The notes under the pieces were generated by a model, which worked only from the letters and a program-made list of their open reading frames with translations, did no database searches and was not told where the DNA came from. From positions 883,736 to 947,735 of the forward strand of contig OZ243041.1 of NCBI GenBank assembly GCA_965212055.1: a stretch of DNA of 64,000 bases, read 5' to 3'. Within the stretch, counting starts at the first letter, position 1, and the number at the start of each line of letters is the position of its first letter. The position numbers were made by a program, and so were the translations under genes. Source of the stretch: Fidelibacterota bacterium (GTDB lineage Bacteria; Fidelibacterota; Marinisomatia; Marinisomatales; Marinisomataceae). Positions 7,331 to 30,290 of the stretch are shown here, piece by piece.

Positions 7331-8570
7331 GTGGAAAAATTACCTAAAAATATTTTAATTATATCTCCTCTTTATCATCCAGAAATAAATAGAGTAAATG
7401 ATTTAGTGGGTTATTTATTAAAAAAAAATCATAGAATAACCATTGTATGTCCAATACCTAATTATCCTGAAGGAAAATATTATAAAAATTATGGTATCTT
7501 TAAAAAAAGATACGAGAAATTTGATAATTTGACTATTGTAAGGATATTAGTACATCCAAGAAAAAATGGATCAAAAATAAATTTATTTCTCAATTATTTA
7601 TCATTTATAATCTTTAGCGTTATTCCTGCTATTATTTTATCCTTTAGAAAATTTGATTTAGTATTTGTTAATCAAGTATCTCCAATTACAATTGCAATGC
7701 CTGGTATTATTATAAAAAAAATTAGGCGGATACCTATGGTTATGTGGGTAACAGATTTATGGCCAGAAAGTGTTAAAGATGCAGGAAATCTGAAATCTAA
7801 TTTTATACCAAATTTACTTTTACCAATAGTAAAATATATTTATAGAAACTGTAATCAAATATTGGTGTCTTCAAGATCTTTTATTAACTCTATAAGTGAA
7901 AAAACAAAAAATAAAGATATAGTTTATATGCCTCAATGGGGTGAGACAACATTCACAGACAATAAATCCACAAGCTTTTACTAATGAATCAGTAGAAAAA
8001 ATAACAGATTTTAAAATAATGTTTGCTGGTAATATTGGTATGGCTCAAGATTTTAATTCTATTATTAATGCAATCAATAAAGTAAAAAATTATCCAATTC
8101 ATTTAGTTGTTTTGGGAGGAGGTAGAGGGAAAAAAGATGCAGTAAACAAAGTTAAAGAAATGGGTTTGGAATCTAAAATTTCCTTTTTGGGATCTTTTCC
8201 ATTAGAAACCATGCCTTATTTTTTTAACAAAGCAGATGCTTTACTAATTAGTCTTAAAAAAAGTGAGATATTCGCAAAAACAATTCCTGCTAAAACACAA
8301 TCATATATGGCTTTTGGTAAACCTATACTAATAAATGCTGATGGTGAAGTATCAAGGATTATAGAAGAATCTAAAAGTGGATTGGTTGCAAATTCAGGCA
8401 ATTATACTCTTTTGGCAAAAAACATGTTAAAATTGAGTCAATTACCTAAAAAAGATCTTGAAACGATGACTAATAATTGTAAAAAGTATTATGAAAAAAA
8501 TTTTAATAGAAAAAAAATTCTTAATAATTTCGAAGAAATAATACATAACATTATAGACAACAAGAAATAA
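7331..8570 (+). pseudogene. family 4 glycosyltransferase (WbuB/WcaI-like) split by a +1 frame change
   Basis: ORF 7331-7984 (GTG start) is a GT4 N-terminal domain ending ...VYMPQWGETTF. ORF 7941-8570 in the +1 frame continues with FKIMFAGNIGMAQDF and the GT-B C-terminal domain. The two overlap at 7941-7984, so one intact gene requires a 1-nt correction there. Confidence 0.75.
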
Positions 8571-8586
8571 ATCTACTAGGAATAAT

Positions 8587-9324
8587 ATGAGATTAATTTT
8601 ATTAAGACATGGTGAAAGTGAATGGAATCTTCTTAATCAATTTACAGGATGGACTGATGTTGGTTTGACTGATAATGGTATCAAAGAAGCACAATTTTCA
8701 GCCGAACAAATTCTTAAAAAAAATATTGTTATAAATACTATTTATACATCTTTGCTTAAAAGGTCCACTCATACTGCTGAAATTATTGCAGATATAATTA
8801 ATTTTGATAAAAAAAATATCCAATATAATTGGCGATTAAATGAAAGACATTATGGAGCTCTCCAAGGATTCAATAAGTCAGAAACAGCTAAAAAATATGG
8901 TGAAGATCAAGTACATGTATGGCGGAGAAGTTATGATATTGCTCCACCTTTATTATCAGATGACGATAAAAGACATCCAAAATTTAATGAAAAGTTTAAA
9001 AATATTGGTGGAGATTTACCTGCTGGAGAAAGTTTAAAAAATGTGATTGATAGATTAAATCCATTTTGGAATCAGTATTTAAAGAATATCAAAGAAAATC
9101 CAGGTAATCATTTAATTGTAGCTCATAGCAACTCTTTAAGAGCAATTGTAAAAATATTAGATCAATTATCTGATGGAGAAATTGTATCGATGAATATTCC
9201 TACAGGTGTTCCTTTGGTATATAAATTGGATAATAATTGCGATGTTATTAATAAGGAATATTTAATTGATCAAGCTAAGTTAGAAAAAAAGCAAGAAATG
9301 ATAGTAAATCAAGGCAAAGCATAA
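8587..9324 (+). CDS. gpmA: 2,3-bisphosphoglycerate-dependent phosphoglycerate mutase (histidine phosphatase family)
   Basis: 245 aa. LLRHGESEWN, FTGWTDVGLTDNG, ERHYGALQG and VAHSNSLRA are dPGM signatures. Confidence 0.88.
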   Translation: MRLILLRHGESEWNLLNQFTGWTDVGLTDNGIKEAQFSAEQILKKNIVINTIYTSLLKRSTHTAEIIADIINFDKKNIQYNWRLNERHYGALQGFNKSETAKKYGEDQVHVWRRSYDIAPPLLSDDDKRHPKFNEKFKNIGGDLPAGESLKNVIDRLNPFWNQYLKNIKENPGNHLIVAHSNSLRAIVKILDQLSDGEIVSMNIPTGVPLVYKLDNNCDVINKEYLIDQAKLEKKQEMIVNQGKA

Positions 9325-10247
9325 TGAATTTAGATTTTTCAAAGATTAAAGTTTTATTAATTGGAGACTTTATGATAGATCACTATATCATTGGTACCTC
9401 CAATAGAATGTCTCCAGAAGCACCGGTTCCTGTAGTAATTCCAGAACAAGAATATTCAATACCAGGAGGAGCAGGAAATGTAGCTATGAATTTAAGTCTA
9501 ATGGGAGCAAATGTAACATGCGTAGGGTGTATTGGTGATGATGATTGGGGTAAAAAATTAATTTCAATATTAAAAAATGAAGGTATAAATATAGAAGCCA
9601 TAAATATAATTAATAATCACCCGACTACATTAAAACAAAGGATTTATTCAGATGGTAAACAAGTTGCGAGACTTGATACAGAAAAAATAATTAATTGGCA
9701 ACCTGATTCTGAAATGAAACACGATTATAATGATTATGATATTATAATATTATCAGATTATAATAAAGGAGTGCTAAATGAACCATGGTTTAGTATAAAT
9801 AATTTAGATAATGTAATAGTAGATCCTAAAAAAGATGTCTTTAGTCATTATAGCCAAGCAAATATTATTACACCAAATTTAAATGAACTTCAAAGAGCTT
9901 CTAAAATTGAGATTAATGATGACAAATCGCTTGTAAATGCTTGTAATGAATTAATTCAAGAATGCAGTTTTAACTATATAATTGCAAAGAAAGGTAATAA
10001 AGGAATGACAATTGTCGGTAAAAACAATTTTGTTAAGCACATAAAAGCTCATTCTGTTGAAAATCCAGATGTCACAGGAGCAGGAGATACTGTTATTGCT
10101 GCCTTATCTCTCGCATTTGCTAAAACAAAAGATATAAAAATTTCTACAACAATTGCTAATGCTGCAGCTGCTGTAGTAGTAGGAAAGCCTGGCACTGCTA
10201 CTGTTACTATTGATGAGATTAATAATTATATTTCTATAGATGAGTGA
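9324..10247 (+). CDS. PfkB-family sugar kinase, D-glycero-beta-D-manno-heptose-7-phosphate kinase-like (RfaE domain I only)
   Basis: 307 aa. KVLLIGDFMIDHY, PGGAGNVA and the C-terminal DVTGAGDTVIAA ribokinase-family motif. It sits directly upstream of gmhA. No fused adenylyltransferase domain. Confidence 0.7.
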   Translation: MNLDFSKIKVLLIGDFMIDHYIIGTSNRMSPEAPVPVVIPEQEYSIPGGAGNVAMNLSLMGANVTCVGCIGDDDWGKKLISILKNEGINIEAINIINNHPTTLKQRIYSDGKQVARLDTEKIINWQPDSEMKHDYNDYDIIILSDYNKGVLNEPWFSINNLDNVIVDPKKDVFSHYSQANIITPNLNELQRASKIEINDDKSLVNACNELIQECSFNYIIAKKGNKGMTIVGKNNFVKHIKAHSVENPDVTGAGDTVIAALSLAFAKTKDIKISTTIANAAAAVVVGKPGTATVTIDEINNYISIDE

Positions 10248-10800
10248 AAAATTAATAACTGAATCAATCGTACAGCATAGTACAGTGCTTGAGTCTTTAG
10301 ATCAAGATACTATCGGTAAAGCTGCACAACTTATTGTGGAATCAATACACAATAATAGCAAAATTTTTTGGTGTGGAAACGGGGGAAGCGCTTCTCAAGC
10401 AAATCATCTTTCTGCTGAGCTTGTAGGAGGTATGTATCAAGAAAAAACTAAACCATGTCAATCCATTTGTTTGAATGTTGATACAGCATTTATTACAGCT
10501 TGGTCTAATGATGATTCTTTTAATAATATTTTTGTTCGTCAACTAGAAGCACTAAGCAACAATGGAGATGTTTTAATTGTTTTGTCAACAAGTGGAAATT
10601 CTTTAAATATTGTCAATGCAACTAAATTTGCACAATCAAATGGTCTAACAGTTGTATCATTAACGGGTAATGGTGGTGGAGATGTAAAAAATTCTTCAGA
10701 TATCAACATCAATATTAATAGTGATAATACCCAACGTATTCAAGAAATGCATATCTTAGTAGGTCATATTATTTGCGAGATGGCTGAACAGTCACTATAA
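10240..10800 (+). CDS. gmhA: phosphoheptose isomerase (SIS domain)
   Basis: 186 aa. CGNGGSASQANHLSAEL, LSTSGNS and QEMHILVGHIICE match GmhA. Confidence 0.85.
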   Translation: MSEKLITESIVQHSTVLESLDQDTIGKAAQLIVESIHNNSKIFWCGNGGSASQANHLSAELVGGMYQEKTKPCQSICLNVDTAFITAWSNDDSFNNIFVRQLEALSNNGDVLIVLSTSGNSLNIVNATKFAQSNGLTVVSLTGNGGGDVKNSSDINININSDNTQRIQEMHILVGHIICEMAEQSL

Positions 10801-13894: not shown

Positions 13895-16546
13895 TTATAA
13901 GTTACTCTTATCTATATTAACAACTAAATCACTTGCAATACAAGACCAATCGTAATCTTTTGCTATCTTACTTGATTGTTTTCCCATTTGTTTAATTAGA
14001 TCTTTATTATCAATCAAATTTTGTATAACACTTGTAAGTTCTCTATCGTTATTTCTTTCAAAGATAACACCATTAACCTGATCTTGTATACAATCTTTAG
14101 AACCAACATTATTAGAAACAATAACAGGTAATCCAGATGCCATAGCTTCTAAAACTACTAACCCAAATGATTCATGTATAGAAGGAAGAACAAAAAGTGA
14201 TGCTTGAGAATAATTTTGTAGTGGAGAACCAGATTCAACTAATACAGAAATACCTTTCTCCATTAATTTATCTTTATATTCATTAAATATATCTTCAAAA
14301 TATTGTGTTATATGACCATTAAATATAAGATTGATTTTATCAGAGGAGTTTATATTAAGCATTGCTTTGAGTAAAAGATGTACGCCTTTTTCCGGATTGA
14401 CATTCCCTACAAATAAAATATTAAACTCTTTATTATTTTTTCTCTTATCTAAACTATCATATTTTTGGAAATCTACACCTAGTGCGCAATTAATAAGTTT
14501 TTCTTTTTTTATATTATTAACTAAATAAGATTTTTCAACTAACGATGAAATACACCAAATTTTGTCTACTATTTTAATCTCTGCTAATTGTCTTTGTATT
14601 CTTTCAGCAAGTATGGGTTCATTTTTCAAACCTATTCTTTTATATTCTTTTTCTAAATAGTCTTTTTGTACATTTGGATGCATCCATTGAGAATGTAGAA
14701 TTGCTTTTCCACCACGTTTTTTCACTTCTTCAAATGAGTATAAAGACATTCCATTGCGTCCAATAATAATTGTATCACTATTAACTTCTATTATATTTTG
14801 TTGAATAAGATTTGTTAATTTTTTATCATAATAGATAAATTCGTCTAATAGTTGTTGATTAACACTGGTAGAAAATACTATTCTTTTAAATTTATTATAA
14901 CCTCTTATAGCAAATTCAAAAATCTTATTGGTACCAATATTATGATATTTACAAATTGATATATCAACTTCTCCCCTGCCAACCCATACAATATTATAAC
15001 CTAATTTTTTAAGATTTTTAACAAGCATAATGTCAGTACTTTTAGTTGCACCCAACAGATTAACATTATGTGAACCTGAATAAATGATAAAATTCATTTT
15101 CCTCTGATTTGAAGAATTGTTGGATAAAATATTAAGATTTGAAGAAGACTCAGAATTTTGATATTCATTTAAAATAATTTGAATATCTTTCAAATAAGTT
15201 ATATACAACATTATGAATAATACGATGAGCAATAATAGCTTATGAATCAAAGATAGTGTAAATAAATTGTTGGCTCCCCATAATAACAGACCCGTGAAGA
15301 AGAGTAGAAATAATATCTTTGTAAAATATGATAGATAACCTTTATGAATCAACTTCTTAACATAAACCTGGTAAGTGTAGAAAACTGATATATTCCCTAC
15401 TATAAAAACTGCAGCTGCAGCACCTGTAGTACCATATAAATCTGTTAAGAAATATAGCAAAGGTATTAATGCTAATAAATTTATTATTGCTACTTCCATA
15501 TCAACTTTTGTGTAACCATATGTATGTAATAATGGAGCAACATTGCTTGATACAGCTTTAATGAGTACAACCACAATAAATATTTGTAGTAAAAGTGATG
15601 ATGGGAGCCATTTTTCACCATATACAAAGAGTATAATTTCTTGAGAAAATAATAAAATTATAAATACTGGAATAAAATAAATAATTGCTGTTATTACCGT
15701 AATCATATCAAATAATTTAATTTGATCTTTAAGATTATCAAGCTTAGCAAGAGTTGGAAAAAGAACTTTATTAATGGCAGCTCGAATAAAAAATAAATAA
15801 TGACTGATTTGGAATGCCATCCAGTAAAATCCTAACGATTTTTCATCTATCAACAAATCCACAAGGTAATAATCAATATTGGTAGATATAAAAACAAGAA
15901 TTGTACTAATCAATAATGGATATCCAAAAACCATGGATTCTCTAAATATTTTATAATCTATACGGAGCTTGGGTCTATATGGCAAAATAAACCAGATTAA
16001 TACTGATTCTACAAGTGAAATAGTTACTTTCCACCACACTAAACTCCATATACCATAATTGTTATATGCCAATGTAATTCCAACAATGCCACCAACGACA
16101 TGAGATACCAACATTGGCATATTTGCTTTAACAAATGATAATTCTTTTTCAAAAAGTGCTTTTGGTTTCACAAGCGGGTTATACAACAATACTATGCAAA
16201 AGATTTGGATATATTCTGTAAGGTGAGATTTATCAATCCATGCTAAAATTGTTGGTAACAAGAAAAGAGAAAATAATATTAACAACAACCCCCATATTAA
16301 TTCAACGGTAAAAATTGTATCTAATATTTTATAAGGATTCTTTTTTTCTTTAATAAGAAATTTATCTCCATGAAGACTCCCAAAACTATTAAGAAACATC
16401 GCAACTAGGCTAATAAAAGCAAAAACACCAAATTCCGATGGCTCCAAAATTCTAGCAAGAGTAACTTGGACAGTAAAAAGTGTAATAACCTGCAATATGG
16501 TTATTACACTTACTGTGATTCCTCCAGAAATCAGTCTTTTTAACAC
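13895..16546 (-). CDS. fusion protein: Wzx-type polysaccharide flippase (MOP superfamily) + family 4 glycosyltransferase
   Basis: 883 aa in a single uninterrupted frame. Residues 1 to about 470 are polytopic (12 or more hydrophobic helices, typical Wzx). A Ser/Asn linker follows. Residues 484-883 (from the Met at 15097) are a GT-B domain with EKGVHLLLKAM and PSIHESFGLVVLEAMASGLPVIVSN. Confidence 0.75.
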   Translation of the reverse strand: MLKRLISGGITVSVITILQVITLFTVQVTLARILEPSEFGVFAFISLVAMFLNSFGSLHGDKFLIKEKKNPYKILDTIFTVELIWGLLLILFSLFLLPTILAWIDKSHLTEYIQIFCIVLLYNPLVKPKALFEKELSFVKANMPMLVSHVVGGIVGITLAYNNYGIWSLVWWKVTISLVESVLIWFILPYRPKLRIDYKIFRESMVFGYPLLISTILVFISTNIDYYLVDLLIDEKSLGFYWMAFQISHYLFFIRAAINKVLFPTLAKLDNLKDQIKLFDMITVITAIIYFIPVFIILLFSQEIILFVYGEKWLPSSLLLQIFIVVVLIKAVSSNVAPLLHTYGYTKVDMEVAIINLLALIPLLYFLTDLYGTTGAAAAVFIVGNISVFYTYQVYVKKLIHKGYLSYFTKILFLLFFTGLLLWGANNLFTLSLIHKLLLLIVLFIMLYITYLKDIQIILNEYQNSESSSNLNILSNNSSNQRKMNFIIYSGSHNVNLLGATKSTDIMLVKNLKKLGYNIVWVGRGEVDISICKYHNIGTNKIFEFAIRGYNKFKRIVFSTSVNQQLLDEFIYYDKKLTNLIQQNIIEVNSDTIIIGRNGMSLYSFEEVKKRGGKAILHSQWMHPNVQKDYLEKEYKRIGLKNEPILAERIQRQLAEIKIVDKIWCISSLVEKSYLVNNIKKEKLINCALGVDFQKYDSLDKRKNNKEFNILFVGNVNPEKGVHLLLKAMLNINSSDKINLIFNGHITQYFEDIFNEYKDKLMEKGISVLVESGSPLQNYSQASLFVLPSIHESFGLVVLEAMASGLPVIVSNNVGSKDCIQDQVNGVIFERNNDRELTSVIQNLIDNKDLIKQMGKQSSKIAKDYDWSCIASDLVVNIDKSNL

Positions 16547-16606: not shown

Positions 16607-17320
16607 TTATAACACAAAATAATATAATTTTTTATAATAATCTAAAGCTTCATCATAAATAGAATGGTACTCTTTTGGTACATTATTAGATCTATTTTCA
16701 AATTTTTCAAATTTGGTAGTATTAATAATATTGTTATACCAATGTTTCCACCAAATACCATCAGTAGAATATGGACCTTTCTTCCAATTAAGCATTTTTT
16801 TATCAAACTTAATATTCAAATGATTGCACCAATGATTTAAGATACTTTCAGGATTGTTTAATAAAGTAGAAACATCAATAACTAAAATATTTTTTTTGAA
16901 TTTTTGCAAATATTTAATTAATTCATATTGCTGAGGATAACCAAGTTCACTGATATGATTTAATTTGTTTTTTTTAATATAAGAGCTAATCACATCTTTT
17001 GGGTGTCTTATCAAAAATGAATTATGGAAATCTTTTATCCATTCAATATTTTCTAAGTTGATTAAATGGTGGGCCATATGTTTTTGATACCATATATTTT
17101 TTGATTGAGGAATTTCTTTAGTAATAGCATTGACTACTGAATCATATGAATTTGGATAATAATTAATAATTTCTTCATGCATTGGATGTTTTAGTTTTTT
17201 TTCTTTTAAATAATATGCATAAAAAGGCTCATCAGTCACAAAGGTATCGTCTCTTGATGACCAAGAACGCATTAATGCAGTAGAAATATTCCTAGGACCT
17301 GACCAACAAGCAATTTTCAT
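16607..17320 (-). CDS. sulfotransferase-like P-loop protein
   Basis: 237 aa. N-terminal WSGPRNISTALMR resembles the 5'-phosphosulfate-binding loop, and LIRHPKDVISSY resembles the R-x-P-x-D-x3-S 3'-phosphate-binding motif of PAPS sulfotransferases. An APS kinase lies in the same gene run. Confidence 0.5.
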   Translation of the reverse strand: MKIACWSGPRNISTALMRSWSSRDDTFVTDEPFYAYYLKEKKLKHPMHEEIINYYPNSYDSVVNAITKEIPQSKNIWYQKHMAHHLINLENIEWIKDFHNSFLIRHPKDVISSYIKKNKLNHISELGYPQQYELIKYLQKFKKNILVIDVSTLLNNPESILNHWCNHLNIKFDKKMLNWKKGPYSTDGIWWKHWYNNIINTTKFEKFENRSNNVPKEYHSIYDEALDYYKKLYYFVL

Positions 17321-18231
17321 AATTTAGATTTTATATAATTTTCAATATCTTGAAGATATAATGTTCTTATCTTATTTGTGATGGAGTCCTTATTTGTTGA
17401 TTCTAAAGATTTATCTTCTAAGATTGAAACTGGTACAATGCCTCCAAACGTTCCAGTAACAAATGCTTCTTGACAATCTTCTATATCTTTAAAAATAAAA
17501 TTTTTTTTAGAAATCGGAATATTATTTATTTTGCATAATTCTATTGTTTTTGATCGAGTAATTCCATTGAGACAATATTTCCCTTTCGAAGTAATAATTT
17601 CATTATTCTTAATGAAAAAAAGGTTAGTTGAATTACATGTGCTAATAAAACCATGCATATCATTCATAATTCCTTCATCATAGCCAAGCTTATTTGCTTC
17701 TATACTCGCTAAAATACAATTTAATTTACTTAATGTATTATACTGTGGATTCAGTATTTCATTATTTGGTCTAATATTTTTGACTCTTCCAATTTTAATA
17801 CCATTCTTATAGGTACTAGAATCTGCTTTCTTATATTCAGGAATAATAACAAAGTTTATTGGACCCACATTTGCATTAGGATTTTGATAAGGAGTAATTT
17901 TATTCCCACGAGAAACTACTAAACGAATATGTACATCATCTTTCATATTATTTTTTGTTAACGTTTTATTGATTTCATTTATGATATACTCTTTTTCAAA
18001 ACCAATATGGAGTGAAATCCCTTTTGCGCTTTCATAGAGACGATCTAGGTGCTCTTCAATATGTATCAAAACAGATTGATGAAATCTAATTCCTTCCCAG
18101 ATTCCATCTCCAAGTAAAAAACCACTATCAAAAACTGATATTTTTGCTTCGTTTCTTTTGAAAAATTCTCCATTAATGTTTATTAAGACAGCTTCATTTT
18201 TTGGATTTACTATGAAAGAATGTGTACTCAT
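17317..18231 (-). CDS. class IV (fold type IV) PLP aminotransferase (BCAT / D-amino-acid aminotransferase / ADC lyase family)
   Basis: The start is taken at MSTHSF (18231) because the upstream ATG lies inside the tRNA. EAKISVFDSGFLLGDGIWEGIRF and a C-terminal EAFVTGTFGGIVPV-type block are typical. Confidence 0.8.
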   Translation of the reverse strand: MSTHSFIVNPKNEAVLININGEFFKRNEAKISVFDSGFLLGDGIWEGIRFHQSVLIHIEEHLDRLYESAKGISLHIGFEKEYIINEINKTLTKNNMKDDVHIRLVVSRGNKITPYQNPNANVGPINFVIIPEYKKADSSTYKNGIKIGRVKNIRPNNEILNPQYNTLSKLNCILASIEANKLGYDEGIMNDMHGFISTCNSTNLFFIKNNEIITSKGKYCLNGITRSKTIELCKINNIPISKKNFIFKDIEDCQEAFVTGTFGGIVPVSILEDKSLESTNKDSITNKIRTLYLQDIENYIKSKL

Positions 18232-18234
18232 GAG

Positions 18235-18306
18235 TGGGCCCACAGGGATTTGAACCCCGAACCTGCGGATTATGAGTCCGTTGCTCTACCATTGAGCTAT
18301 GGGCCC
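18235..18306 (-). tRNA. tRNA with CAU anticodon (elongator Met or lysidine-modified Ile2; not initiator)
   Basis: The reverse complement GGGCCCAUAGCUCAAUGGUAGAGCAACGGACUCAUAAUCCGCAGGUUCGGGGUUCAAAUCCCUGUGGGCCCA folds by hand. Elements are a 7-bp acceptor stem, D stem GCUC/GAGC, anticodon loop CUCAUAA, and T arm CGGGG-UUCAAAU-CCCUG. A G1-C72 pair argues against initiator. CCA is not encoded. Confidence 0.92.
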
Positions 18307-18317
18307 TTATCTAAAAA

Positions 18318-18659
18318 TTATTTTCTAAACAATTTTTTTCTTATTTTTGTAGCAGAAATTTTTCCTATACTATCTGGTGGAATATGTTCAATGATATCAT
18401 AACCTACCCCACGCCCATAATTTACAGATTCAATATCAGGTATAATAATAACTTTGATTCTATTACTTTTAACCAAATCTTGAAGTTTATTTTCAATATT
18501 GTTTTTTACATCTTCAGGATCATAAGGATTTTTATCATTTGTACTTACTTCTCTTATACAAATAAGAACATTTTTCCCTTCATTTAGTCGTTGATCAATT
18601 AACCAACGATGTCCATCATGCCACGGTTGCCATCTTCCTATAAACATTGAGTATTTCAT
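18318..18659 (-). CDS. minimal HxGH-type nucleotidylyltransferase (cytidylyl/adenylyltransferase superfamily)
   Basis: 113 aa carrying both superfamily motifs, GRWQPWHDGH and ISATKIRKK. The start overlaps the 3' end of the APS kinase gene. Substrate unknown. Confidence 0.6.
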   Translation of the reverse strand: MKYSMFIGRWQPWHDGHRWLIDQRLNEGKNVLICIREVSTNDKNPYDPEDVKNNIENKLQDLVKSNRIKVIIIPDIESVNYGRGVGYDIIEHIPPDSIGKISATKIRKKLFRK

Positions 18660-19077
18660 TTGTACATTCCTCTATATCTAATTTGCCTGTATCAATTGAT
18701 AAATGTTTTTCTAAAGGGATTTCATAGTCTTTAGCAAAAAAATTTTCTCTTCCTCTTATTTCTGTAGTATGCAAATAAACTTCCAGAAAAGGAAATTCAC
18801 TCTTTAATTCATTTCTAAGAAATCTATATGGGGCAACAATAGATACTACACAAAGATATCCCTTACTGCTTAAAAAACGAATAATTGATATCGCAGTAGA
18901 AATATTTTTAATTCTCCCTTCTTTAGAATAATCTTTATTTCTATTAATATTTCTTAAATCATCACCATCTAAATTAATTATTTTAAGATATTCATCATCT
19001 TGTTTTAAAGATTTAATAATCGAATTAGCTAGGGTTGTTTTCCCGCTACCCGGCTGACCTGTAAGCCAAATAATCAT
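18616..19077 (-). CDS. cysC: adenylylsulfate (APS) kinase, short form
   Basis: 153 aa. IIWLTGQPGSGKTTLA P-loop, LDGDDLRN and SKEGRIKNI...VVSIVAPYRFLR match CysC blocks. Confidence 0.82.
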   Translation of the reverse strand: MIIWLTGQPGSGKTTLANSIIKSLKQDDEYLKIINLDGDDLRNINRNKDYSKEGRIKNISTAISIIRFLSSKGYLCVVSIVAPYRFLRNELKSEFPFLEVYLHTTEIRGRENFFAKDYEIPLEKHLSIDTGKLDIEECTNEILNVYRKMATVA

Positions 19078-19089
19078 AATTTTATCTTT

Positions 19090-20115
19090 TCAGATAAAAA
19101 GTTGATCCCGTTTATTATAAGCTTCAAAGACAAGGATGAGTGCAAATAAAATTATAAATAAAGCAATAATGCTTTCTAAAAATCCTCTGCCAGCTTTATA
19201 TGAAATAATATGAGGCGAATCCAAAATAAATACTGTAGAAGTACTATTTTTTTCATCAATCTTTGCAATTTCTAGTTGATCTGAAAGAGTTATATATAAT
19301 TGATTATAGAGCGATACTTCTTGTTCTATTCTCTTCTTTTGAACAATCAAATTTGGAGAATTGGTTAAGTTTTTATTGCTTTCAAGAAAGAAGATTAGTT
19401 CATCTTGAGCATTCTCTAAATTTTCTTTTATCTGCGATAGACGACCAACAACAAAATCTTTCTTTTCTTTTGCTTTAATATTAGTAATCTCACTAGAATA
19501 TTTCACAATGGAATCAAAGATATTTTCTAAAATATCTTGAGATAATTCAGGATTTTCTCTTACTGTCACACTAATAGCATTTAAAGAAGATTGTTTATCT
19601 TCTAAATGACCTATACTGTCTTTAAGAATTTCTTTAGCAAAAAGCAACTTTTTCTCTTCAATAGATAAATTTTCACTCATATTAATCTTTCTATTGATTT
19701 TCTTAATAGTAGCAATTGGATTAATTGAAAAAACATTATCATAATTACTCCCCCAATAGTCAACTAAGGTTTTTTTATCTCCTTTGATATTGTATTCTTG
19801 CTCTACAACATGTTGTAATAATTTTTCAGAAGCAAGATATTCAGATACAGTAAAACCTAAATAAAGATTCTTTTCGAATCTGTCTCCTGCAAAACTTCTT
19901 ATAAAACTTAAAGCAGAAGATTGGTTTGATTCATTATAATTGGTATAGAATGATACTTCTGAAGAGTAAGATGGAGTCTTAAGAAAAAAGTAATACAACA
20001 TAAAAATAACGATTACAGATAAAAGAATTTTTAAATATTGTCTAAAAATATTAAATATAAAATAGAACACATTTTTTAAATTAATATACTCATTTTCTAG
20101 GATTGGTCTATTCAA
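19090..20115 (-). CDS. polysaccharide chain-length determinant (Wzz/PCP family, no kinase domain)
   Basis: 341 aa. One TM helix near each terminus around a coiled-coil periplasmic region. It sits directly downstream of the Wza-like gene. Confidence 0.7.
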   Translation of the reverse strand: MNRPILENEYINLKNVFYFIFNIFRQYLKILLSVIVIFMLYYFFLKTPSYSSEVSFYTNYNESNQSSALSFIRSFAGDRFEKNLYLGFTVSEYLASEKLLQHVVEQEYNIKGDKKTLVDYWGSNYDNVFSINPIATIKKINRKINMSENLSIEEKKLLFAKEILKDSIGHLEDKQSSLNAISVTVRENPELSQDILENIFDSIVKYSSEITNIKAKEKKDFVVGRLSQIKENLENAQDELIFFLESNKNLTNSPNLIVQKKRIEQEVSLYNQLYITLSDQLEIAKIDEKNSTSTVFILDSPHIISYKAGRGFLESIIALFIILFALILVFEAYNKRDQLFI

Positions 20116-20125
20116 TGTTTAGTCC

Positions 20126-22027
20126 TTAATTTGAATTATTATCAATAATAAAAATAATAGTTGCCAAGTTAGTAAGAATAGAAACTAAGTCCGATGTAAA
20201 GGCTGTAGGATTAAATTCCTGCGGATCAGGATCTGCTGGAACAAAAATTGTATCCCCTCCATTAACGCGTTTCCAACGTCCTCTTGCAATTTGATCAATT
20301 TCACCGTTTGATTTTTTAATATAAACTTTATTCTTTAATGAATTTTCTTGATATCCACCAGCAAGCATAATATAGTCTAATACTGTTAAATTTGATTTAT
20401 GTGCTACCAAACCAGGGTTATAAACATTGCCTTGAACATTCACCATATCTTCATATGGAAGAATAGTGATAATTGAATTTGCAGTAAGAACAAAATCTGT
20501 ATTTACATTACCAACATTTTCTCGTACTGTAGTAACCATGCCACTTGCGTTAGTTTCAGTAAATTCTTCATAAATTACTATAGCATCTTGATTGGCAAGT
20601 GGAGTAAATCCTTCTGCAAGATTAATTGCATCTCCTACAGTCATTCTAGATGTTAAAGGAAAACTGCCTCTTTTCTGTACTTCTCCATCAATTGTTACTT
20701 TAAAACTATTATTATATCTATAGTCTTCATATACAAAAATTTTGTCTTCAGCTTTTAATTCAAATTTATCTGATTCTTCGTAAGAAACTTTAAACTCTTT
20801 TCCATAAAACTGATTCTTATCTTTTCGTAAAATTAAAATTTCATTCTCACGAATGGATTTTCTATATACAGGATCATTGAATCCTCCTGCTACATTTAAA
20901 ACAGTTTTAAGATTCGATGCAGAAGGATATAATCCAGGAAACTTAACTCTACCAAAAATCTCTACTGTTGTTAATACATCTCCAATAGATGTAATAATAA
21001 CAGAATCTCCATTATGTAAATTAGTGTTTGAAAATTCTTTAAAGTTAATGGTCTTGCTTGTTTGTGCATTGTCGTCTGAAGTACGTTCTTCCATTGGAAT
21101 CACAACATACAATAAAGCTGAAGAACTAGCATTTGCCGTAAAACCACCAGTATATTTGATAAGATCTGCTAATGATTCATCATTCACTAATTCAAAAAAA
21201 CCAATATTATAAACTTCTCCTAGTATTTCGACACGATTAATAATTGTGGGAATATGAATAACATCTCCATCTAAAATTTTTATAGATGAAAAATCATTTT
21301 TCCCATCTGCAAAAAAAGAATAAAAGTCAACAGTAGCAATTATTTCATTATTTCGAATTAATTGTACCATTCTTAATGAACCTTCTTTTTTTACTCCTCC
21401 AGCTTGAACAATCGCTGAAAATATATCAGAAAACGGATGAATAAGATTAATACCTGGTATTTCAATTTGTCCAGAAAAATAAACATTGATAGATTTTAAT
21501 TTTCCTAATTCTAACATTAATTCTGTTGGATTATCTTTATCTTGTAAGGTTGAATAAATGCGTGACAATTCCTGAACTAAAATTAATTCAGCTTCTTTCA
21601 TATTTTTGTTAGAAAGATTGATAAAACCAACATTTTCATAATAAATTAATCCTTCTTTATTAATAACAAATTTTTCTCTTGAATTTGTTTCTCCCCATAG
21701 AGACAATATTACCTCATCACCTGGGCCTAATTTGAAATCAGGTGGTGTAGGAACATTATCAAAAAAATTAATATCTCTCTTAAAATAATTATAGCCAAAA
21801 TAACTATCAGCAGGTGCAGATGTAGAAGGCCCAATTGTAACGGAACTTGGGATTTCACTCTCTGAACTAATATCTGTTGTCCCAACTTCAGAAGGGATTG
21901 CTCCAGCTTTTAATTGTGATTTAATCAAATCTAATTCATCATTACTCAATTTATTCAAATCACCTAATGAAACCTGTCCAAAGACGATATTAATAAAACA
22001 TAAAAATATGGTATATTCTCTCTTCAT
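20126..22027 (-). CDS. polysaccharide export outer-membrane protein (Wza/OPX family with multiple SLBB repeats)
   Basis: 633 aa. Signal peptide, Poly_export motif FKLGPGDEVILSLWGE, repeated beta-grasp-like V..G.V..PG segments, and a C-terminal hydrophobic helix. Confidence 0.8.
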   Translation of the reverse strand: MKREYTIFLCFINIVFGQVSLGDLNKLSNDELDLIKSQLKAGAIPSEVGTTDISSESEIPSSVTIGPSTSAPADSYFGYNYFKRDINFFDNVPTPPDFKLGPGDEVILSLWGETNSREKFVINKEGLIYYENVGFINLSNKNMKEAELILVQELSRIYSTLQDKDNPTELMLELGKLKSINVYFSGQIEIPGINLIHPFSDIFSAIVQAGGVKKEGSLRMVQLIRNNEIIATVDFYSFFADGKNDFSSIKILDGDVIHIPTIINRVEILGEVYNIGFFELVNDESLADLIKYTGGFTANASSSALLYVVIPMEERTSDDNAQTSKTINFKEFSNTNLHNGDSVIITSIGDVLTTVEIFGRVKFPGLYPSASNLKTVLNVAGGFNDPVYRKSIRENEILILRKDKNQFYGKEFKVSYEESDKFELKAEDKIFVYEDYRYNNSFKVTIDGEVQKRGSFPLTSRMTVGDAINLAEGFTPLANQDAIVIYEEFTETNASGMVTTVRENVGNVNTDFVLTANSIITILPYEDMVNVQGNVYNPGLVAHKSNLTVLDYIMLAGGYQENSLKNKVYIKKSNGEIDQIARGRWKRVNGGDTIFVPADPDPQEFNPTAFTSDLVSILTNLATIIFIIDNNSN

Positions 22028-26444: not shown

Positions 26445-27387
26445 ATAAAAAATAAAGACTAGTGATAAGAACGCCCAAGTTTAAACCTGCACGATAAGGC
26501 AAACAATAATACAAGCAAAATATATAACCAATCATATTCATTCTATCTTCTCCAACAAAATATAGAGCTATAAATAGCGGTAAAAAATAAATTAGAGTCT
26601 CTAATCTGTCTTTTGTATAATATAAAGCTATAAGAAGAAATATTGTCATCCTTAAAAAATCAAATATACTTCGATCGCCACCATATGCTGTTATTTTAAA
26701 AAAAAGGTAAGGTAGTCCAGAAATTTGAGTGGAGTTTATAGCAAAGAATACAAACACTATCATTGGTAACACAAATAATAATGACCGTTTAAATTGTAAT
26801 TTAAATAATAAAGGCTTGACTTCATTAATGAATAACTGAAGTGCTCTACCTAAACATAAGATTAGTATCTGCAAATGAGAAAAAATAGCTAAACCAAAGA
26901 AAAAGAAAGAAAGAACATATTTTTTTCTAAAAAGAAAAAATAACAAGAAAAAGATAAAACCAATTTTTAACCTCTCTCCTGTAAAAAATAATACATATAA
27001 ATAAAAATTTGTAAGAATAAAAAAAGATGTTACTAGAAAATTAACTTTAAGATTATCAAAAACTTTTATTAAAAGCCCAGCAAGAAATGTATTACACATA
27101 GACAGAAAAAAGATTCTATCTATTCCTAGATTGCTTGCTACCCAAACAAAAATAAAATGAACAAATTCTACTGTGGTAATAATATAATTATAGAGTTGAT
27201 ATGCCCTAGCAATATCAAGGTCAGCTACTCCGTTATATATTGTTCTATATCCATTGTTATCTCCCCCTACATATAAATTCCCTAGAATCAATGAAATAAT
27301 AAACACAAAAAAAAGCAGTGTTATTCTCAAAAAAGTATTTTTATTAAAAGATGGTAGATTTAAAAAAATTTTAGTGTTTATCATCAT
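26380..27387 (-). CDS. polytopic membrane protein, EpsG/Wzy-like repeat-unit polymerase candidate
   Basis: 335 aa with about 10 hydrophobic helices and no soluble domain. It is the only polymerase-like membrane protein in a locus that has a Wzx flippase. The family was not rigorously recognised. Confidence 0.45.
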   Translation of the reverse strand: MMINTKIFLNLPSFNKNTFLRITLLFFVFIISLILGNLYVGGDNNGYRTIYNGVADLDIARAYQLYNYIITTVEFVHFIFVWVASNLGIDRIFFLSMCNTFLAGLLIKVFDNLKVNFLVTSFFILTNFYLYVLFFTGERLKIGFIFFLLFFLFRKKYVLSFFFFGLAIFSHLQILILCLGRALQLFINEVKPLLFKLQFKRSLLFVLPMIVFVFFAINSTQISGLPYLFFKITAYGGDRSIFDFLRMTIFLLIALYYTKDRLETLIYFLPLFIALYFVGEDRMNMIGYIFCLYYCLPYRAGLNLGVLITSLYFLYANIDFISKIILYGNGFPPQP

Positions 27388-28604
27388 AAAGAAAATGCCT
27401 TCAAAAGATTTGATATGTGTAAATTTCTATAAGATTGGGGACGATGAGAATCTGCAAGAAGGAAAAACCCTGAACTAATTTTATCTTTTTTAAGATATCC
27501 ATGCATACCAGCTTTTAATTTACTGTCATTGTGAAAAAAATCTGGACTTACTTGAACACCTTTTTTAGCCCACCAAACAATATCAGCAATATCTTTCACA
27601 GGCGGTAATCCTTCGTTTTCACAATCCTGATTATTAAGAAAATATCCTTTATCTTTTAATTCTTTATTAGAAAATAGTTTCTGATGAAAATTCTTCAATT
27701 TTTCTTTATTATCTAATTTCCACCATATTCTTAACATTGTTGAATCTAAAAAATAATAAAAATCTCTCCCTAATTTAAGATTCAAATTCTTTGTAATAGA
27801 TTCAATGATATTTTTGATATTGATACCATGATTAACATGTTCCATACCATGATCTCCCAAAAAAGAAATATCACACTTTTCATGATGGTATTCCATACAT
27901 GTATGATAGAAATTTTTTAGTTTTATATCTATATCTTCAAGCCCTTTAATTAATTCTTGTGAATGTGGCCCAAATTTATGGCCAAGTACATCTGCTGTAC
28001 TTATATATACTGGAATCAATGTCTGCTTATAATCAGAAAGCTTATTTATAAGGGTTTTAAGTCGTGAAGAATCAGTACCAAAAGAAGCACTAGATAATGA
28101 TGTAAAATATTCCCAGTTAATTGTATATCCTGCATGAATATGTTCATATAATAAACCTGATTTAATCTGTTTCGAATATTCTTCAAAATCAATTGAATCT
28201 TCTGTAAGAATAACTTTGTCTAAAATATTTAAAGGAATTCTCTGTGGATACATACTAGGGGACGATTTATTGAGAGACACTTGCCACAAAAAACGTCTGA
28301 TAATTTTTTGAAAAAATTGATTTTTTTCAAAAAAACTAAGTACAGGTATTATCCAATTTGGAAGCCATGAATATGGTCGAATATTATTCTTAGATTCAGT
28401 ATCAATCGTAATAGCATTAACAAAACCAGTTTCAGAAGGTTTTAAGCTAAAAAAAATCTCCGAACGTTCACAAAAACCACTCGATATCTCTAAATTTTTT
28501 ATATAAATACCATCATGAATTTTAGATGATAACCAAGGCATATATTTAACATGATCTGATCTAAGAGCATCAAGAACTATAAGGTAATGATTTTGTAAGT
28601 TCAT
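27384..28604 (-). CDS. alkaline-phosphatase-fold metalloenzyme (type I phosphodiesterase/nucleotide pyrophosphatase/phosphotransferase family)
   Basis: 406 aa. LIVLDALRSDH, ADVLGHKFGPHSQE and LGDHGMEH correspond to the metal-ligand blocks of the PF01663-type family. No signal peptide. Confidence 0.6.
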   Translation of the reverse strand: MNLQNHYLIVLDALRSDHVKYMPWLSSKIHDGIYIKNLEISSGFCERSEIFFSLKPSETGFVNAITIDTESKNNIRPYSWLPNWIIPVLSFFEKNQFFQKIIRRFLWQVSLNKSSPSMYPQRIPLNILDKVILTEDSIDFEEYSKQIKSGLLYEHIHAGYTINWEYFTSLSSASFGTDSSRLKTLINKLSDYKQTLIPVYISTADVLGHKFGPHSQELIKGLEDIDIKLKNFYHTCMEYHHEKCDISFLGDHGMEHVNHGINIKNIIESITKNLNLKLGRDFYYFLDSTMLRIWWKLDNKEKLKNFHQKLFSNKELKDKGYFLNNQDCENEGLPPVKDIADIVWWAKKGVQVSPDFFHNDSKLKAGMHGYLKKDKISSGFFLLADSHRPQSYRNLHISNLLKAFSL

Positions 28605-28605
28605 A

Positions 28606-29385
28606 TTAAAAATAATATTGATTTAAAAATTTATTTTTATATTCTTTCTGTGAGAAATCTTTTAAATAATCCTCAATAATATCAACTTTTTTTTGATTAT
28701 TAATACCGCTTACACATTTATATTCACAGAAAGGAAATCCAATAACATTCTTGCTTTTTGTATTGCAAAATGGAATAAATTTTACAAAATCAATTTCTTT
28801 TTTATTCTGCAATTTTTTATTAGCTATAAAATCAGATAATAATGGATATACCTCGCTATCTAAGATAAAACAAAGACAATCTTGTTCAGCCCAACCAGAA
28901 TATGGTTTACCTTCATTCGAATGAAACACCTCAGAATATTTTCCTTCACTATCTCTCAAAAATCCAACATAAGGATTTTTTTTATAACGTGTTGGCATTG
29001 CAATGAGTGGATTAAATTTTTCATATAATATGGTAGAAAAAAATATATAACTAGAAGGAATAAGTGCTAAATCACCCCACAATAAAATGGTATCATACTC
29101 TAAAGCTAAATCATTTTTGATTGCATCCAAACATACCGCTGTACCTTGTATTTGTTCAGGATGGAGTTCAATTAGATTGATTTTTTTATTTAAACCTTCT
29201 ATTTGTTCAAAATAATGCTTATCGAGAGAATTAATTACTATATTGATGGAAACAATATTTGATATTGCTTTTTCAATCACATTTAACAAGTTAATAATAA
29301 TAGATTTTTGACCATTTGGATAGTCAATTTTAAGGAGAGGTTTTGGATAATTGAGATTCATTCTTTCTCCCTTTCCTGCAGCCAT
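28606..29385 (-). CDS. sugar/phospho-compound nucleotidyltransferase (GlmU-N/MobA/CofC-like fold)
   Basis: 259 aa from the only ATG. MAAGKGERM is the signature xAAGxGxR loop, with GTAVCL and WGDLALI. The conserved beta-strand QIVI lies upstream of the ATG, so the true start may be non-canonical. Confidence 0.65.
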   Translation of the reverse strand: MAAGKGERMNLNYPKPLLKIDYPNGQKSIIINLLNVIEKAISNIVSINIVINSLDKHYFEQIEGLNKKINLIELHPEQIQGTAVCLDAIKNDLALEYDTILLWGDLALIPSSYIFFSTILYEKFNPLIAMPTRYKKNPYVGFLRDSEGKYSEVFHSNEGKPYSGWAEQDCLCFILDSEVYPLLSDFIANKKLQNKKEIDFVKFIPFCNTKSKNVIGFPFCEYKCVSGINNQKKVDIIEDYLKDFSQKEYKNKFLNQYYF

Positions 29386-29525
29386 AATTACTATTTGATA
29401 TTGTTTTTTATTGATTGAAGTATTTTCTAAATAGTAATTAAATAATTCTTTTCTATACTGTGAAAGTTCAAACTTTTTAGAAGAAAAAGGATTAAAGATT
29501 AAAGTACTATCTCCTGATTTTTTAA

Positions 29526-30284
29526 TTACAATATCTCCTTTAATGATTCCACAGAAAATGTAGGAGAAGGAGAATTTTTAACTAAATCAGATTTTGAAGA
29601 AATAAGTACAGATTGGCATTTAAGATTCTTACTGAGTTCTATGTCAGTCCAAGGATTGTCTCCTATCACTATCAATTTTTCATCTTTTTTTACTTTTATC
29701 ATTTCTCTGCTGAGATTAGGTTTTCCAAATTCTTTTGATAGCTTTTTTTTCTGTAAAACACCTGATAAATTCAATAAACCGTCCAAAATTAAGGTAACAG
29801 TAAAATTAAATGGTGGTTCGGGTGAAATTCTATCAGGATTTCCTAATAAAATATCTGCATCTGTTTTTATAATTAAGTTTAATGCTGATTCTGTTCTTTT
29901 AATCCATTCACTATCAACCAAAGAAGTAAAAATAATTGCATCAATATCTTCTTCTGAGATATCATTCACTATATTGCCTACAAAAGGTTTGATTTTATTG
30001 GCAACATTTTCTTGTCCGTAATGAAAAATAGTTTTGTAAGATTTTTTTTCTAAAAATTTTAATAATAAATCTAATGATGTAATAACATCGGGTATTGGTA
30101 CATTAAAAATGTTAAATAATTCCTCTTTTAATTCTAAGCCTGTTTTAGATCCAATATTTGAAAAAATAATTATTTTTTGATAATAATTTTTTAAGAATTC
30201 TTTTGAACCATTGAGAGGTTCTTTTTTATTAGAATATAATGTTCCACTAACATCTAATAAAATTTTATCAAATTTGGATAACAT
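29526..30284 (-). CDS. HAD-superfamily hydrolase, subfamily IIA-like
   Basis: 252 aa. Motif I variant ILLDVSGTL, FSNIGSK, and motif IV VIGDNPWTDIELSKN (the GDxxxTDI of NagD-type HAD-IIA). Confidence 0.6.
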   Translation of the reverse strand: MLSKFDKILLDVSGTLYSNKKEPLNGSKEFLKNYYQKIIIFSNIGSKTGLELKEELFNIFNVPIPDVITSLDLLLKFLEKKSYKTIFHYGQENVANKIKPFVGNIVNDISEEDIDAIIFTSLVDSEWIKRTESALNLIIKTDADILLGNPDRISPEPPFNFTVTLILDGLLNLSGVLQKKKLSKEFGKPNLSREMIKVKKDEKLIVIGDNPWTDIELSKNLKCQSVLISSKSDLVKNSPSPTFSVESLKEIL

Positions 30285-30290
30285 CTTACA

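Follow-up and report, generated by a model that had tools for sequence, protein, structure and literature searches.

A 113-residue HIGH-motif nucleotidyltransferase paired with a short APS kinase in a Marinimicrobia polysaccharide island: a predicted minimal ATP-sulfurylase-like enzyme

Introduction

Two types of enzyme, Sat and CysDN, are currently credited with sulfate activation, and an organism in whose genome neither is found is judged incapable of activating or assimilating sulfate. Here, we describe two overlapping genes in a 64,000-nucleotide stretch of the genome of a Fidelibacterota bacterium (Marinimicrobia, SAR406; contig OZ243041.1), which is referred to below as the window. One encodes a short member of the adenosine 5'-phosphosulfate (APS) kinase family, and the other a very small nucleotidyltransferase of the HIGH-motif superfamily. 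Judged from gene context only, the transferase is probably a minimal ATP-sulfurylase-like enzyme, which together with the kinase makes 3'-phosphoadenosine 5'-phosphosulfate (PAPS), to be used by a Sulfotransfer_5-family protein encoded 1 kb downstream. The two genes would thus amount to a 'mini PAPS synthase' in split form, a very small system that activates sulfate in two steps.

An earlier note on this DNA had offered three possible functions for the transferase: a minimal adenylyltransferase for sulfate activation, an HldC-type heptose-1-phosphate adenylyltransferase, or an enzyme resembling nicotinamide mononucleotide (NMN) adenylyltransferase (NMNAT). The first is favoured by fusion to, or adjacency with, APS kinase across phyla and by neighbouring sulfur genes. 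It amounts to a known reaction and a known pathway logic, predicted for an unrecognised and much smaller protein family that appears non-homologous at the family level. Members are labelled in databases (NCBI, JGI) as 'adenylyltransferase/cytidyltransferase family protein', 'cytidyltransferase-like' or 'NMNAT'. No description of the family, or of a cysC-cytidylyltransferase pairing, was found in the open-access full-text literature, and no statement on SAR406 sulfate assimilation was found in the literature searched.

Overlapping genes for a kinase and a nucleotidyltransferase

Both open reading frames (ORFs) described in the earlier note were recovered from the ORF list: a kinase of 153 amino acids (aa) with the motifs GQPGSGKTT and LDGDD, ending at 18616, and a 113-aa transferase with GRWQPWHDGH and ISATKIRKK. 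The 3' end of the kinase gene and the 5' end of the transferase gene overlap in different frames. As had been noted, the overlap (18616-18659) is 44 nucleotides (nt) if translation of the transferase begins at the ATG at 18659, and 32 nt if it begins at the in-frame ATG at 18647. The first of these is the better start because a Shine-Dalgarno (SD)-like AGAGGA (18668-18673, minus strand) lies 8 nt ahead of it, inside the kinase coding sequence; because the N-terminal MKYS is conserved among homologues, with Y3 and F6 invariant; and because the predicted first beta-strand requires residues 3-8 in AlphaFold 2 (AF2) models. The start at 18647 is disfavoured, as it has no SD sequence and residues 1-4 are conserved.

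Comparison with four relatives gave a ratio of non-synonymous to synonymous substitution rates (dN/dS) of 0.10-0.18 for the transferase gene, indicating strong purifying selection. Each of two protein searches returned at least 8000 candidate homologues, and the 120 best matches to the window transferase are all 80-96% identical to it. A chance ORF in the overlap is ruled out by the dN/dS values together with these thousands of conserved homologues. The spacing of the two ORFs varies among relatives, with overlaps of 26-44 nt in the closest and anything from a 16-nt gap to a 4-nt overlap, or outright fusion, in more distant ones. Since natural fusions exist and the two frames differ by +1, a programmed frameshift joining the ORFs was also considered; no slippery site was seen.

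The kinase retains its P-loop (GQPGSGKTT), LDGDDLR, DYSKEGRIKNIS, and VAP. Alignment with canonical CysC proteins (the E. coli sequence typed by hand, the remaining sequences taken from genome loci) located all of the P-loop, LDGDxxR, (F/Y)S..(D/G)R..NI, and (I/V)(S/A)P substrate motifs. The protein passes the Pfam APS_kinase model (PF01583; 69.3 bits, cut-off 21.1), and its top match in the PDB is the M. thermolithotrophicus APS kinase 8a8h (E = 1.5e-17). The same alignment indicates that about 20 aa of the lid (RDxKGLYxKAR...FTG) have been deleted, so that EIRGRENFF alone is left. It is because of these missing lid residues, with the core substrate motifs intact, that the kinase falls below the equivalog threshold of TIGR00455 apsK (81.5, cut-off 138.7), a model to which only its N-terminal ~105 residues align. 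In another Marinimicrobia clade (L014), a canonical CysC (258 bits) occupies the same position, directly upstream of the small transferase.

The family across genomes

The transferase family comprises 1139 clusters at 50% identity (E <= 1e-3). Kinase and transferase are joined in one polypeptide in 29 of the 150 best cluster representatives at this identity, with the kinase first in 20 and the transferase first in nine. Two other apparent fusions were set aside. One with DHHA1 (P0270), considered as a possible link to a 3'-phosphoadenosine 5'-phosphate (PAP) phosphatase, was dropped at 23.6 bits, below the Pfam cut-off of 25.9, and with no PDB sequence match; the other, with chorismate synthase (P0249), looks like a gene-calling or assembly artefact.

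A genome scan using one genome per species yielded at least 508 loci, of which 80 were kept for neighbourhood counts. These 80 loci cover at least nine phyla and one archaeal metagenome-assembled genome (MAG). The lineages comprise Marinimicrobia, Bacteroidota, SAR11, Omnitrophota, Planctomycetota, Acidobacteriota, Nitrospirota-like and Dadabacteria/Thermodesulfobacteriota-type MAGs, the candidate phyla radiation (CPR), a Spirochaetia MAG, and a Methanosarcinales MAG. The kinase is fused to the transferase at 22 loci, directly adjacent at 32, within 4.2 kb at three, and absent from 23. Co-occurrence with cysC, which had been set beforehand as a test, is thus clearly present, with the kinase fused or directly adjacent at 54 of 80 loci.

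Seven partner kinases from six lineages were compared with TIGR00455 apsK, and all scored above the cut-off of 138.7, at 190-258 bits: P0175 (257), P0224 (205), and the partners from Marinimicrobia L014 (258), Bacteroidetes L029 (256), Nomurabacteria L021 (200), Omnitrophota L031 (203), and Methanosarcinales L023 (190). By this curated measure, many lineages have a genuine APS kinase as the partner.

Users of PAPS and recyclers of PAP are also found around the pair. Sulfotransfer_3 genes neighbour the transferase in Omnitrophota and Planctomycetia, as does a Sulfotransfer_1 gene in one planctomycetote (L034). A CysQ that passes TIGR01331 adjoins the Methanosarcinales fusion (L023). A cluster in marine Bacteroidota runs cysC, transferase, an unassigned gene, a CysQ-like gene, Wzx, two Sulfotransfer_1 genes, and Wzy. 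At three Nitrospirota-like loci that have no kinase, the order is sulfite reductase (+TusA), APS reductase, and transferase, with an Rrf2 regulator in front in one of them; the APS reductase is of the thioredoxin-dependent type (TIGR02055, 273 vs cut-off 235). A kinase is unnecessary at these loci because APS reductase needs APS, not PAPS. The presence of the kinase therefore appears to track whether the downstream enzymes use PAPS or APS. Given its sulfotransferase, CysQ, sulfite reductase, and APS reductase neighbours, the transferase sits where an ATP sulfurylase would be expected.

Known ATP sulfurylases are scarce around the family. The observation that the window contains no sat or cysDN held up: its six-frame translation yielded no homologue of Sat, CysD, CysN, or CysQ. 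Sat homologues were found at none of 94 loci and CysDN at one. The Sat, CysD, and CysN query sequences for these window and locus searches were hand-typed.

Two groups of members have distinctive features. The Dadabacteria-type subgroup (among L036, L038-L040, L044, L046, and L058-L086) consists of 152-aa proteins with an N-terminal extension of ~20 aa and no kinase. Judged by eye, it has housekeeping neighbours, among them a Leu/Phe-tRNA protein transferase, a GATase-like gene, a methyltransferase, and MsrA. The SAR11 pair (among L027, L028, L033, and L037-L085) is either split with a 1-34-nt overlap or fused into a 258-aa protein, and the transferase stands alone in L075, L080, and L084. Genes seen by eye next to the SAR11 pair include a Rieske-type oxygenase, an enoyl-CoA hydratase, a CoA-binding protein, and a dimethylglycine-dehydrogenase-like protein.

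Homology and structure of the transferase

Among the families tested, the transferase can be placed by its sequence in the HIGH-motif nucleotidyltransferase superfamily only. It scores 27 bits against Pfam CTP_transf_like (PF01467, cut-off 21), with residues 5-43 alone aligned. Its motifs are GRWQPWHDGH, IRE (R36), IPDIESVNYGRGVGY, and ISATKIR. The HxGH signature is represented by WHDGH (residues 13-17), in which H14, G16, and H17 are invariant among 44 diverse members, and in ISATKIR (residues 101-107) the same is true of S102, T104, and R107. The full set of family invariants is G8, R9, H14, G16, H17, P45, G82, G86, S102, T104, and R107.

The sole detectable relatives of known function are NadM-type and archaeal NMNATs, and these match only the first ~75 residues (family profile against the PDB, E = 2e-11). 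Against the NMNAT models TIGR01527 and NF002243, the transferase scores 30.6 (cut-off 181.2) and 33.4 (cut-off 127), aligning over residues 4-78 only. Alignments with PDB chains end at about residue 76, and the protein itself stops six residues after ISATKIR. The model for phosphopantetheine adenylyltransferase (PPAT; TIGR01510) gives 15 against a cut-off of 103.3. Membership of the NMNAT and PPAT families is ruled out by the missed curated cut-offs and the partial coverage. Neither the rfaE-domain-II/HldC NCBIfam model nor the Pfam model of Sat-type ATP sulfurylase (PF01747) matched at E <= 0.1. Profile and structure classification, which the earlier note had suggested, therefore assigned the superfamily and left the protein below every NMNAT and PPAT threshold, with no HldC match.

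Relative to NadM-type NMNATs (TIGR01527, NF002243; 1f9a, 1ej2, 2qjt), the family shares GR(F/W)QPxHxGH and the rest of the first ~75 residues, a PDIE turn, IS(A/G)TxIR, and, in its longer members, a C-terminal W..LV..S helix. It differs in size (113 aa here vs 168-181 aa) and in the unit between the third and last strands, a segment of ~28 aa in NMNAT that is replaced by the nearly invariant YGRGVGY loop. The window clade also lacks the C-terminal helical subdomain, whose helix is retained in the alignment by family members of 156-166 aa, and the gene context is one of sulfur activation, not NAD metabolism. On these alignments, NadM-type NMNAT is clearly the evolutionary parent scaffold of the family.

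In two AF2 models of the transferase (predicted local distance difference test, pLDDT, 78 and 81), a beta-alpha-beta-alpha-beta Rossmann-like core is predicted with confidence as far as residue 74, followed by a last third of poor quality. The top Foldseek matches were PPAT (query TM-score, TMq, 0.52-0.55), NMNAT, ATP sulfurylases (1v47, 0.49; 2gks, 0.46), and pantothenate synthetase, all weak (E >= 0.008). These model-based matches are in line with the HIGH superfamily and do not discriminate function.

Proposed mechanism

The observed genes, motifs, overlap, purifying selection, predicted superfamily fold, and cross-phylum pattern of fusions and neighbours suggest a pathway of three steps. 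In the first, the transferase would make APS from ATP and sulfate, its presumed acceptor, by ATP-sulfurylase chemistry on a scaffold derived from a NadM-type NMN adenylyltransferase. The middle beta-alpha unit would be gone from this scaffold, as would the C-terminal helix in this clade, with the YGRGVGY loop and an invariant Arg36 in their place. The small size of the protein would make sense with an acceptor as small as sulfate. Likewise, if the acceptor is a very small anion, this would help to account for the invariant Arg36 and Arg83 and for the missing NMN-binding elaborations.

In the second step, the lid-less kinase, if active in its shortened form as its family membership suggests, would phosphorylate the 3'-OH of APS to give PAPS. 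The ATP sulfurylase reaction is thermodynamically unfavourable and depends on APS kinase to draw it on, as the phosphorylation of APS would do here. Equimolar amounts of the two proteins would therefore matter, and the 44-nt overlap would ensure them by coupling translation of the two genes. In the third step, the Sulfotransfer_5 protein, working together with a class IV aminotransferase, would use PAPS for sulfation, the putative target being some component of the polysaccharide that the enclosing Wza/Wzz/Wzx island makes and exports.

Contrary evidence and alternative functions

Several findings weigh against sulfate activation by the transferase. All of its detectable sequence homology is to NMNAT and PPAT, with none to Sat, and Sat chains are absent from the PDB matches of the family profile even at E <= 10. 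At the very loop that is specific to the family (residues 82-85), the AF2 model has low confidence (pLDDT < 50). As the window kinase is lid-less and below the apsK cut-off, its substrate is less certain than that of the canonical partners. The absence of Sat, and of CysDN at all but one locus, covers the 64-kb window and the 94 loci, not whole genomes, and was established with hand-typed queries. At the one locus where a known ATP sulfurylase and the small transferase lie side by side (Acidobacteriota L026, 5117-8259), canonical cysD and cysN, both above cut-off, are divergently adjacent to a transferase-CysC fusion. The transferase is therefore not needed there as the only ATP sulfurylase, and would be redundant at best. 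Finally, 17 Dadabacteria/Thermodesulfobacteriota-type loci have neither kinase nor sulfur context, and 30 SAR11 loci lie among core metabolic genes, again without sulfur context and with a strongly diverged kinase (apsK, 32 bits).

The arrangement at L026, where CysDN already covers the supply of APS, together with the lack of sequence similarity to Sat, would also fit a transferase that acts in APS/PAPS metabolism other than by activating sulfate. It might use another small acceptor or another nucleoside triphosphate, recycle a by-product, or serve as a regulatory or nucleotide-binding partner of APS kinase. Such a role seems rather unlikely, as the invariant HxGH and ISxT argue for catalysis, and the kinase-less Nitrospirota-like loci with sulfite and APS reductases fit an APS producer better than a kinase accessory. 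Moreover, genomes with redundant ATP sulfurylases are known, such as those in which CysDN is accompanied by NodPQ.

The transferase could alternatively be a reduced but functional adenylyltransferase for NMN or nicotinic acid mononucleotide, with the adjacent P-loop kinase acting like the ribosylnicotinamide kinase of NadR. Its closest homologues are indeed NadM and archaeal NMNATs, some members are named NMNAT by JGI, and the 156-166-aa members retain a 'DDWRxLVDxSI' segment that seems to resemble the NMNAT C-terminus. Phages are known to carry NAD-salvage genes, and fused versions of the two domains occur in phages (phrog_10255). Against this, the NMNAT scores lie far under the curated cut-offs, and the alignment is confined to the N-terminal ~75 residues. 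Between the third strand and ISxT a segment is deleted, and it is presumably this middle beta-alpha unit and the C-terminal helical subdomain that complete the NMN site. Partner kinases score above the equivalog threshold for APS kinase and do not resemble that of NadR, and the genes nearby encode sulfotransferases, CysQ, and the reductases of APS and sulfite. No NAD-salvage gene (pnuC, nadV) was recognised among the annotated neighbours, apart from a NUDIX domain on a sulfotransferase-like protein at L021. The NMNAT option from the earlier note is thus borne out as evolutionary origin and fails on scores, missing segments, and neighbours as function, which makes it quite improbable that the protein is a working NMNAT.

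That the transferase is the HldC-type enzyme for the phosphatase, PfkB kinase, and GmhA-like genes at 8.6-10.8 kb is highly improbable: these genes lie 8 kb away with no nucleotidyltransferase found beside them and are kept together in L001-L003, but no HldC model was matched, a PfkB domain occurs in none of six non-kinase fusions checked, co-occurrence with the GmhA cluster is limited to Marinimicrobia loci, one SAR11 locus, and one Flavobacteriales MAG (L010), whereas the link to the kinase extends over all phyla sampled, and the transferase is coupled translationally to an APS-kinase homologue, not to the PfkB kinase.

Comparison with known systems

A function in sulfate activation would place the pair beside systems in which Sat is fused to APS kinase (PAPSS, 1x6v; Aquifex Sat/CysC, 2gks; Thiobacillus, 3cr8). 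These share with it what is probably the same superfamily fold, an HxxH-type motif, an APS-kinase partner, fusions in both domain orders, and CysQ, sulfotransferase, and APS reductase neighbours. Sat nevertheless has no detectable sequence similarity to the transferase, and comprises a catalytic domain plus an N-terminal domain of ~350-400 aa, as opposed to ~110-160 aa. The QxRN and GRDHAG motifs of Sat are not found as such in the transferase. The proposal is accordingly that the two may work alike, not that the transferase is a member of the Sat family. The GTP-coupled ATP sulfurylase CysD/CysN occupies the same place beside cysC in sulfation and assimilation clusters, but has an unrelated fold (a PP-loop ATP pyrophosphatase and a GTPase).

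The transferase is, as had been pointed out, about 50 aa shorter than PPAT or NMNAT. This size is extreme but has precedents in the PDB, where the glycerol-3-phosphate cytidylyltransferases TagD/TarD (129-132 aa; 1coz, 2b7l) are the smallest well-known HIGH-motif transferases. Their layout is similar, with HxGH, a short loop, the last strand, and (I)STTxI in succession; they differ in their marginal sequence scores (E 0.08-0.25), other acceptor, and lack of any APS-kinase link. A parallel to the two-step logic is provided by PPAT and dephospho-CoA kinase (bifunctional CoA synthase), in which a HIGH-motif adenylyltransferase is followed by a P-loop kinase acting on the 3'-OH of the adenylate product, and PPATs give the best structural matches. 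The partners of the present family are, however, APS kinases by curated thresholds, and the PPAT model is far from matched.

A fused version of both domains is represented by phrog_10255, annotated 'kinase', from Xylella, Stenotrophomonas, and Xanthomonas phages. Of its 230 positions, 134-227 align with the window transferase (E = 6.8e-16) and 2-78 with the window kinase (E = 2.8e-6). It differs from the window pair in being a single, phage-borne polypeptide with a SAR11-like, lid-less kinase half. Phage fusions of ~245 aa were seen in Xylella phage Sano (gp35; L087, 4584-5321), Stenotrophomonas phage DLP_6 (L088, 3590-4321), and 21 further phage records, where they are annotated only as 'kinase' or 'adenylylsulfate kinase'; the hosts are Xanthomonadaceae and others. 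In phage Sano, an annotated cysteine dioxygenase lies 3 kb upstream of the fusion.

The pair within its polysaccharide island

The pair lies in a polysaccharide biosynthesis and export island that occupies ~4.9-38.4 kb of the window and encodes Wza, a Wzz-like protein, Wzi, a Wzx-GT4 fusion, several glycosyltransferases, sugar epimerases and dehydratases, and DegT. The G+C content of the window is ~29%. Over the island (4000-34000) it falls to 24-30%, compared with 31-38% on either side, where metK/ahcY lie at 2.4-4.9 kb and other genes past 38 kb; this is compatible with a hypervariable, possibly exchanged surface-glycan island with conserved edges.

Table 1. Positions in the window of the kinase-transferase pair and associated features.
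Feature	Position	Strand	Length	Remarks
Minimal HIGH-motif nucleotidyltransferase	18318..18659	-	113 aa	Predicted sulfate adenylyltransferase (ATP-sulfurylase-like)
Translational-coupling region	18616..18673	-		44-nt overlap plus SD-like AGAGGA
Short APS-kinase-family kinase	18616..19077	-	153 aa	Begins MIIWLTGQPGSGKTT
Wzz-like chain-length protein	19090-20115	-		Upstream of kinase; weak Wzz match
Wza-type polysaccharide exporter	20126-22027	-		Poly_export and SLBB domains on orthologues in L001-L006
tRNA-Met (CAU)	18234..18306	-		Between transferase and aminotransferase genes; ARAGORN
Class IV aminotransferase	17317..18243	-		Aminotran_4, E = 1.4e-40
Sulfotransfer_5-family sulfotransferase	16607..17320	-	237 aa	N-terminal WSGPRNIST; PF19798, E = 7.8e-48
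PfkB kinase	9324-10247	+		
SIS/GmhA-like gene	10240-10800	+		

On the minus strand, the order of genes is Wza, Wzz-like, kinase, transferase, tRNA-Met(CAU), class IV aminotransferase, and Sulfotransfer_5 (Table 1), and the block from Wza to Sulfotransfer_5 is repeated in six independent contigs. With the Wza and Wzz-like genes (19090..22027) upstream on the same strand, the pair lies inside an operon of the capsule/O-antigen export type. In other Marinimicrobia clades the neighbours are shuffled, with the kinase-transferase unit kept and the aminotransferase-sulfotransferase pair within ~3 kb. The latter is a conserved pair (AT4-ST5) that travels with the kinase and transferase in Marinimicrobia: the Sulfotransfer_5 gene is no more than ~3 kb away at 10 of 12 Marinimicrobia loci, and also in L010. 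The Sulfotransfer_5 protein has a weak match to the CurM sulfotransferase 4gbm. The closest genome match in the scan is a single-cell genome of Candidatus Neomarinimicrobiota (SAR406), with 81% identity.

The tRNA-Met gene begins 11 nt past the transferase stop and ends ~3 nt ahead of the likely ATG of the aminotransferase (18230). This is probably the true start (giving 303 rather than 308 aa), as the listed GTG at 18243 would overlap the tRNA. Relatives L001-L005 have an intergenic gap of ~80 nt at the position of the tRNA.

The hldA-like and gmhA genes reported in the earlier note are present as it described them. Together with a histidine-phosphatase gene, the PfkB and SIS (GmhA-like) genes form a heptose-pathway-like trio (8587-10800, plus strand), which is conserved in L001-L003. 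Immediately upstream, a glycosyltransferase family 4 (GT4) gene appears as two overlapping plus-strand ORFs, one with the Glyco_transf_4 N-domain (7331-7984) and one with the Glycos_transf_1 C-domain (7941-8570), and may be frameshifted or pseudogenised. In an 883-aa ORF (13895-16546, minus strand), a Wzx-type flippase domain (Polysacc_synt_3) is followed by a GT4 domain at the C-terminus, an unusual fusion; in L001-L003, by comparison, the flippase is a separate 439-aa protein. Further along, 27384-31556 (minus strand) encodes a CofD-like protein (2-phospho-L-lactate transferase family), a HAD hydrolase, a type I phosphodiesterase-family protein, and a 259-aa ORF with no Pfam match; the CofD-like, HAD, and phosphodiesterase genes could be a phospho-substituent pathway. 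The UDP-glucose/GDP-mannose dehydrogenase ORF at 34548-35393 (plus strand, 281 aa) matches the N-terminal domain from profile position 67 and the central domain, with no C-terminal domain match, and may be truncated or have a wrongly listed TTG start.

Implications for sulfate activation

Beyond the window, it is possible, though a tentative proposal, that the family constitutes a third, evolutionarily independent class of ATP sulfurylase, 113-166 aa long and derived from an NMNAT scaffold. It would serve PAPS-dependent sulfation or APS-dependent assimilation in SAR406, marine Bacteroidota, Nitrospirota-like lineages, Omnitrophota, Planctomycetota, CPR, some phages, and a Methanosarcinales archaeon. 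An ATP sulfurylase is reported to be missing from most SAR11 genomes despite the presence of AprAB (PMC10356861). In SAR11, the pair of lid-less kinase and transferase would supply this activity, and the gap between AprAB and the missing ATP sulfurylase (PMC10356861) would become directly testable.

The family is very abundant in ocean metagenomes, and if the prediction is wrong, it is still a very widespread and strongly conserved partner of APS kinase. If it is right, the transferase would be the smallest known ATP sulfurylase, and a case in which a new acceptor specificity evolved by deletion from an NMNAT scaffold. The source of PAPS for the sulfated cell-surface polysaccharides of these bacteria would be identified, and metabolic reconstructions of abundant marine lineages (SAR406, marine Bacteroidota, Nitrospirota-like, and possibly SAR11) would need revision.

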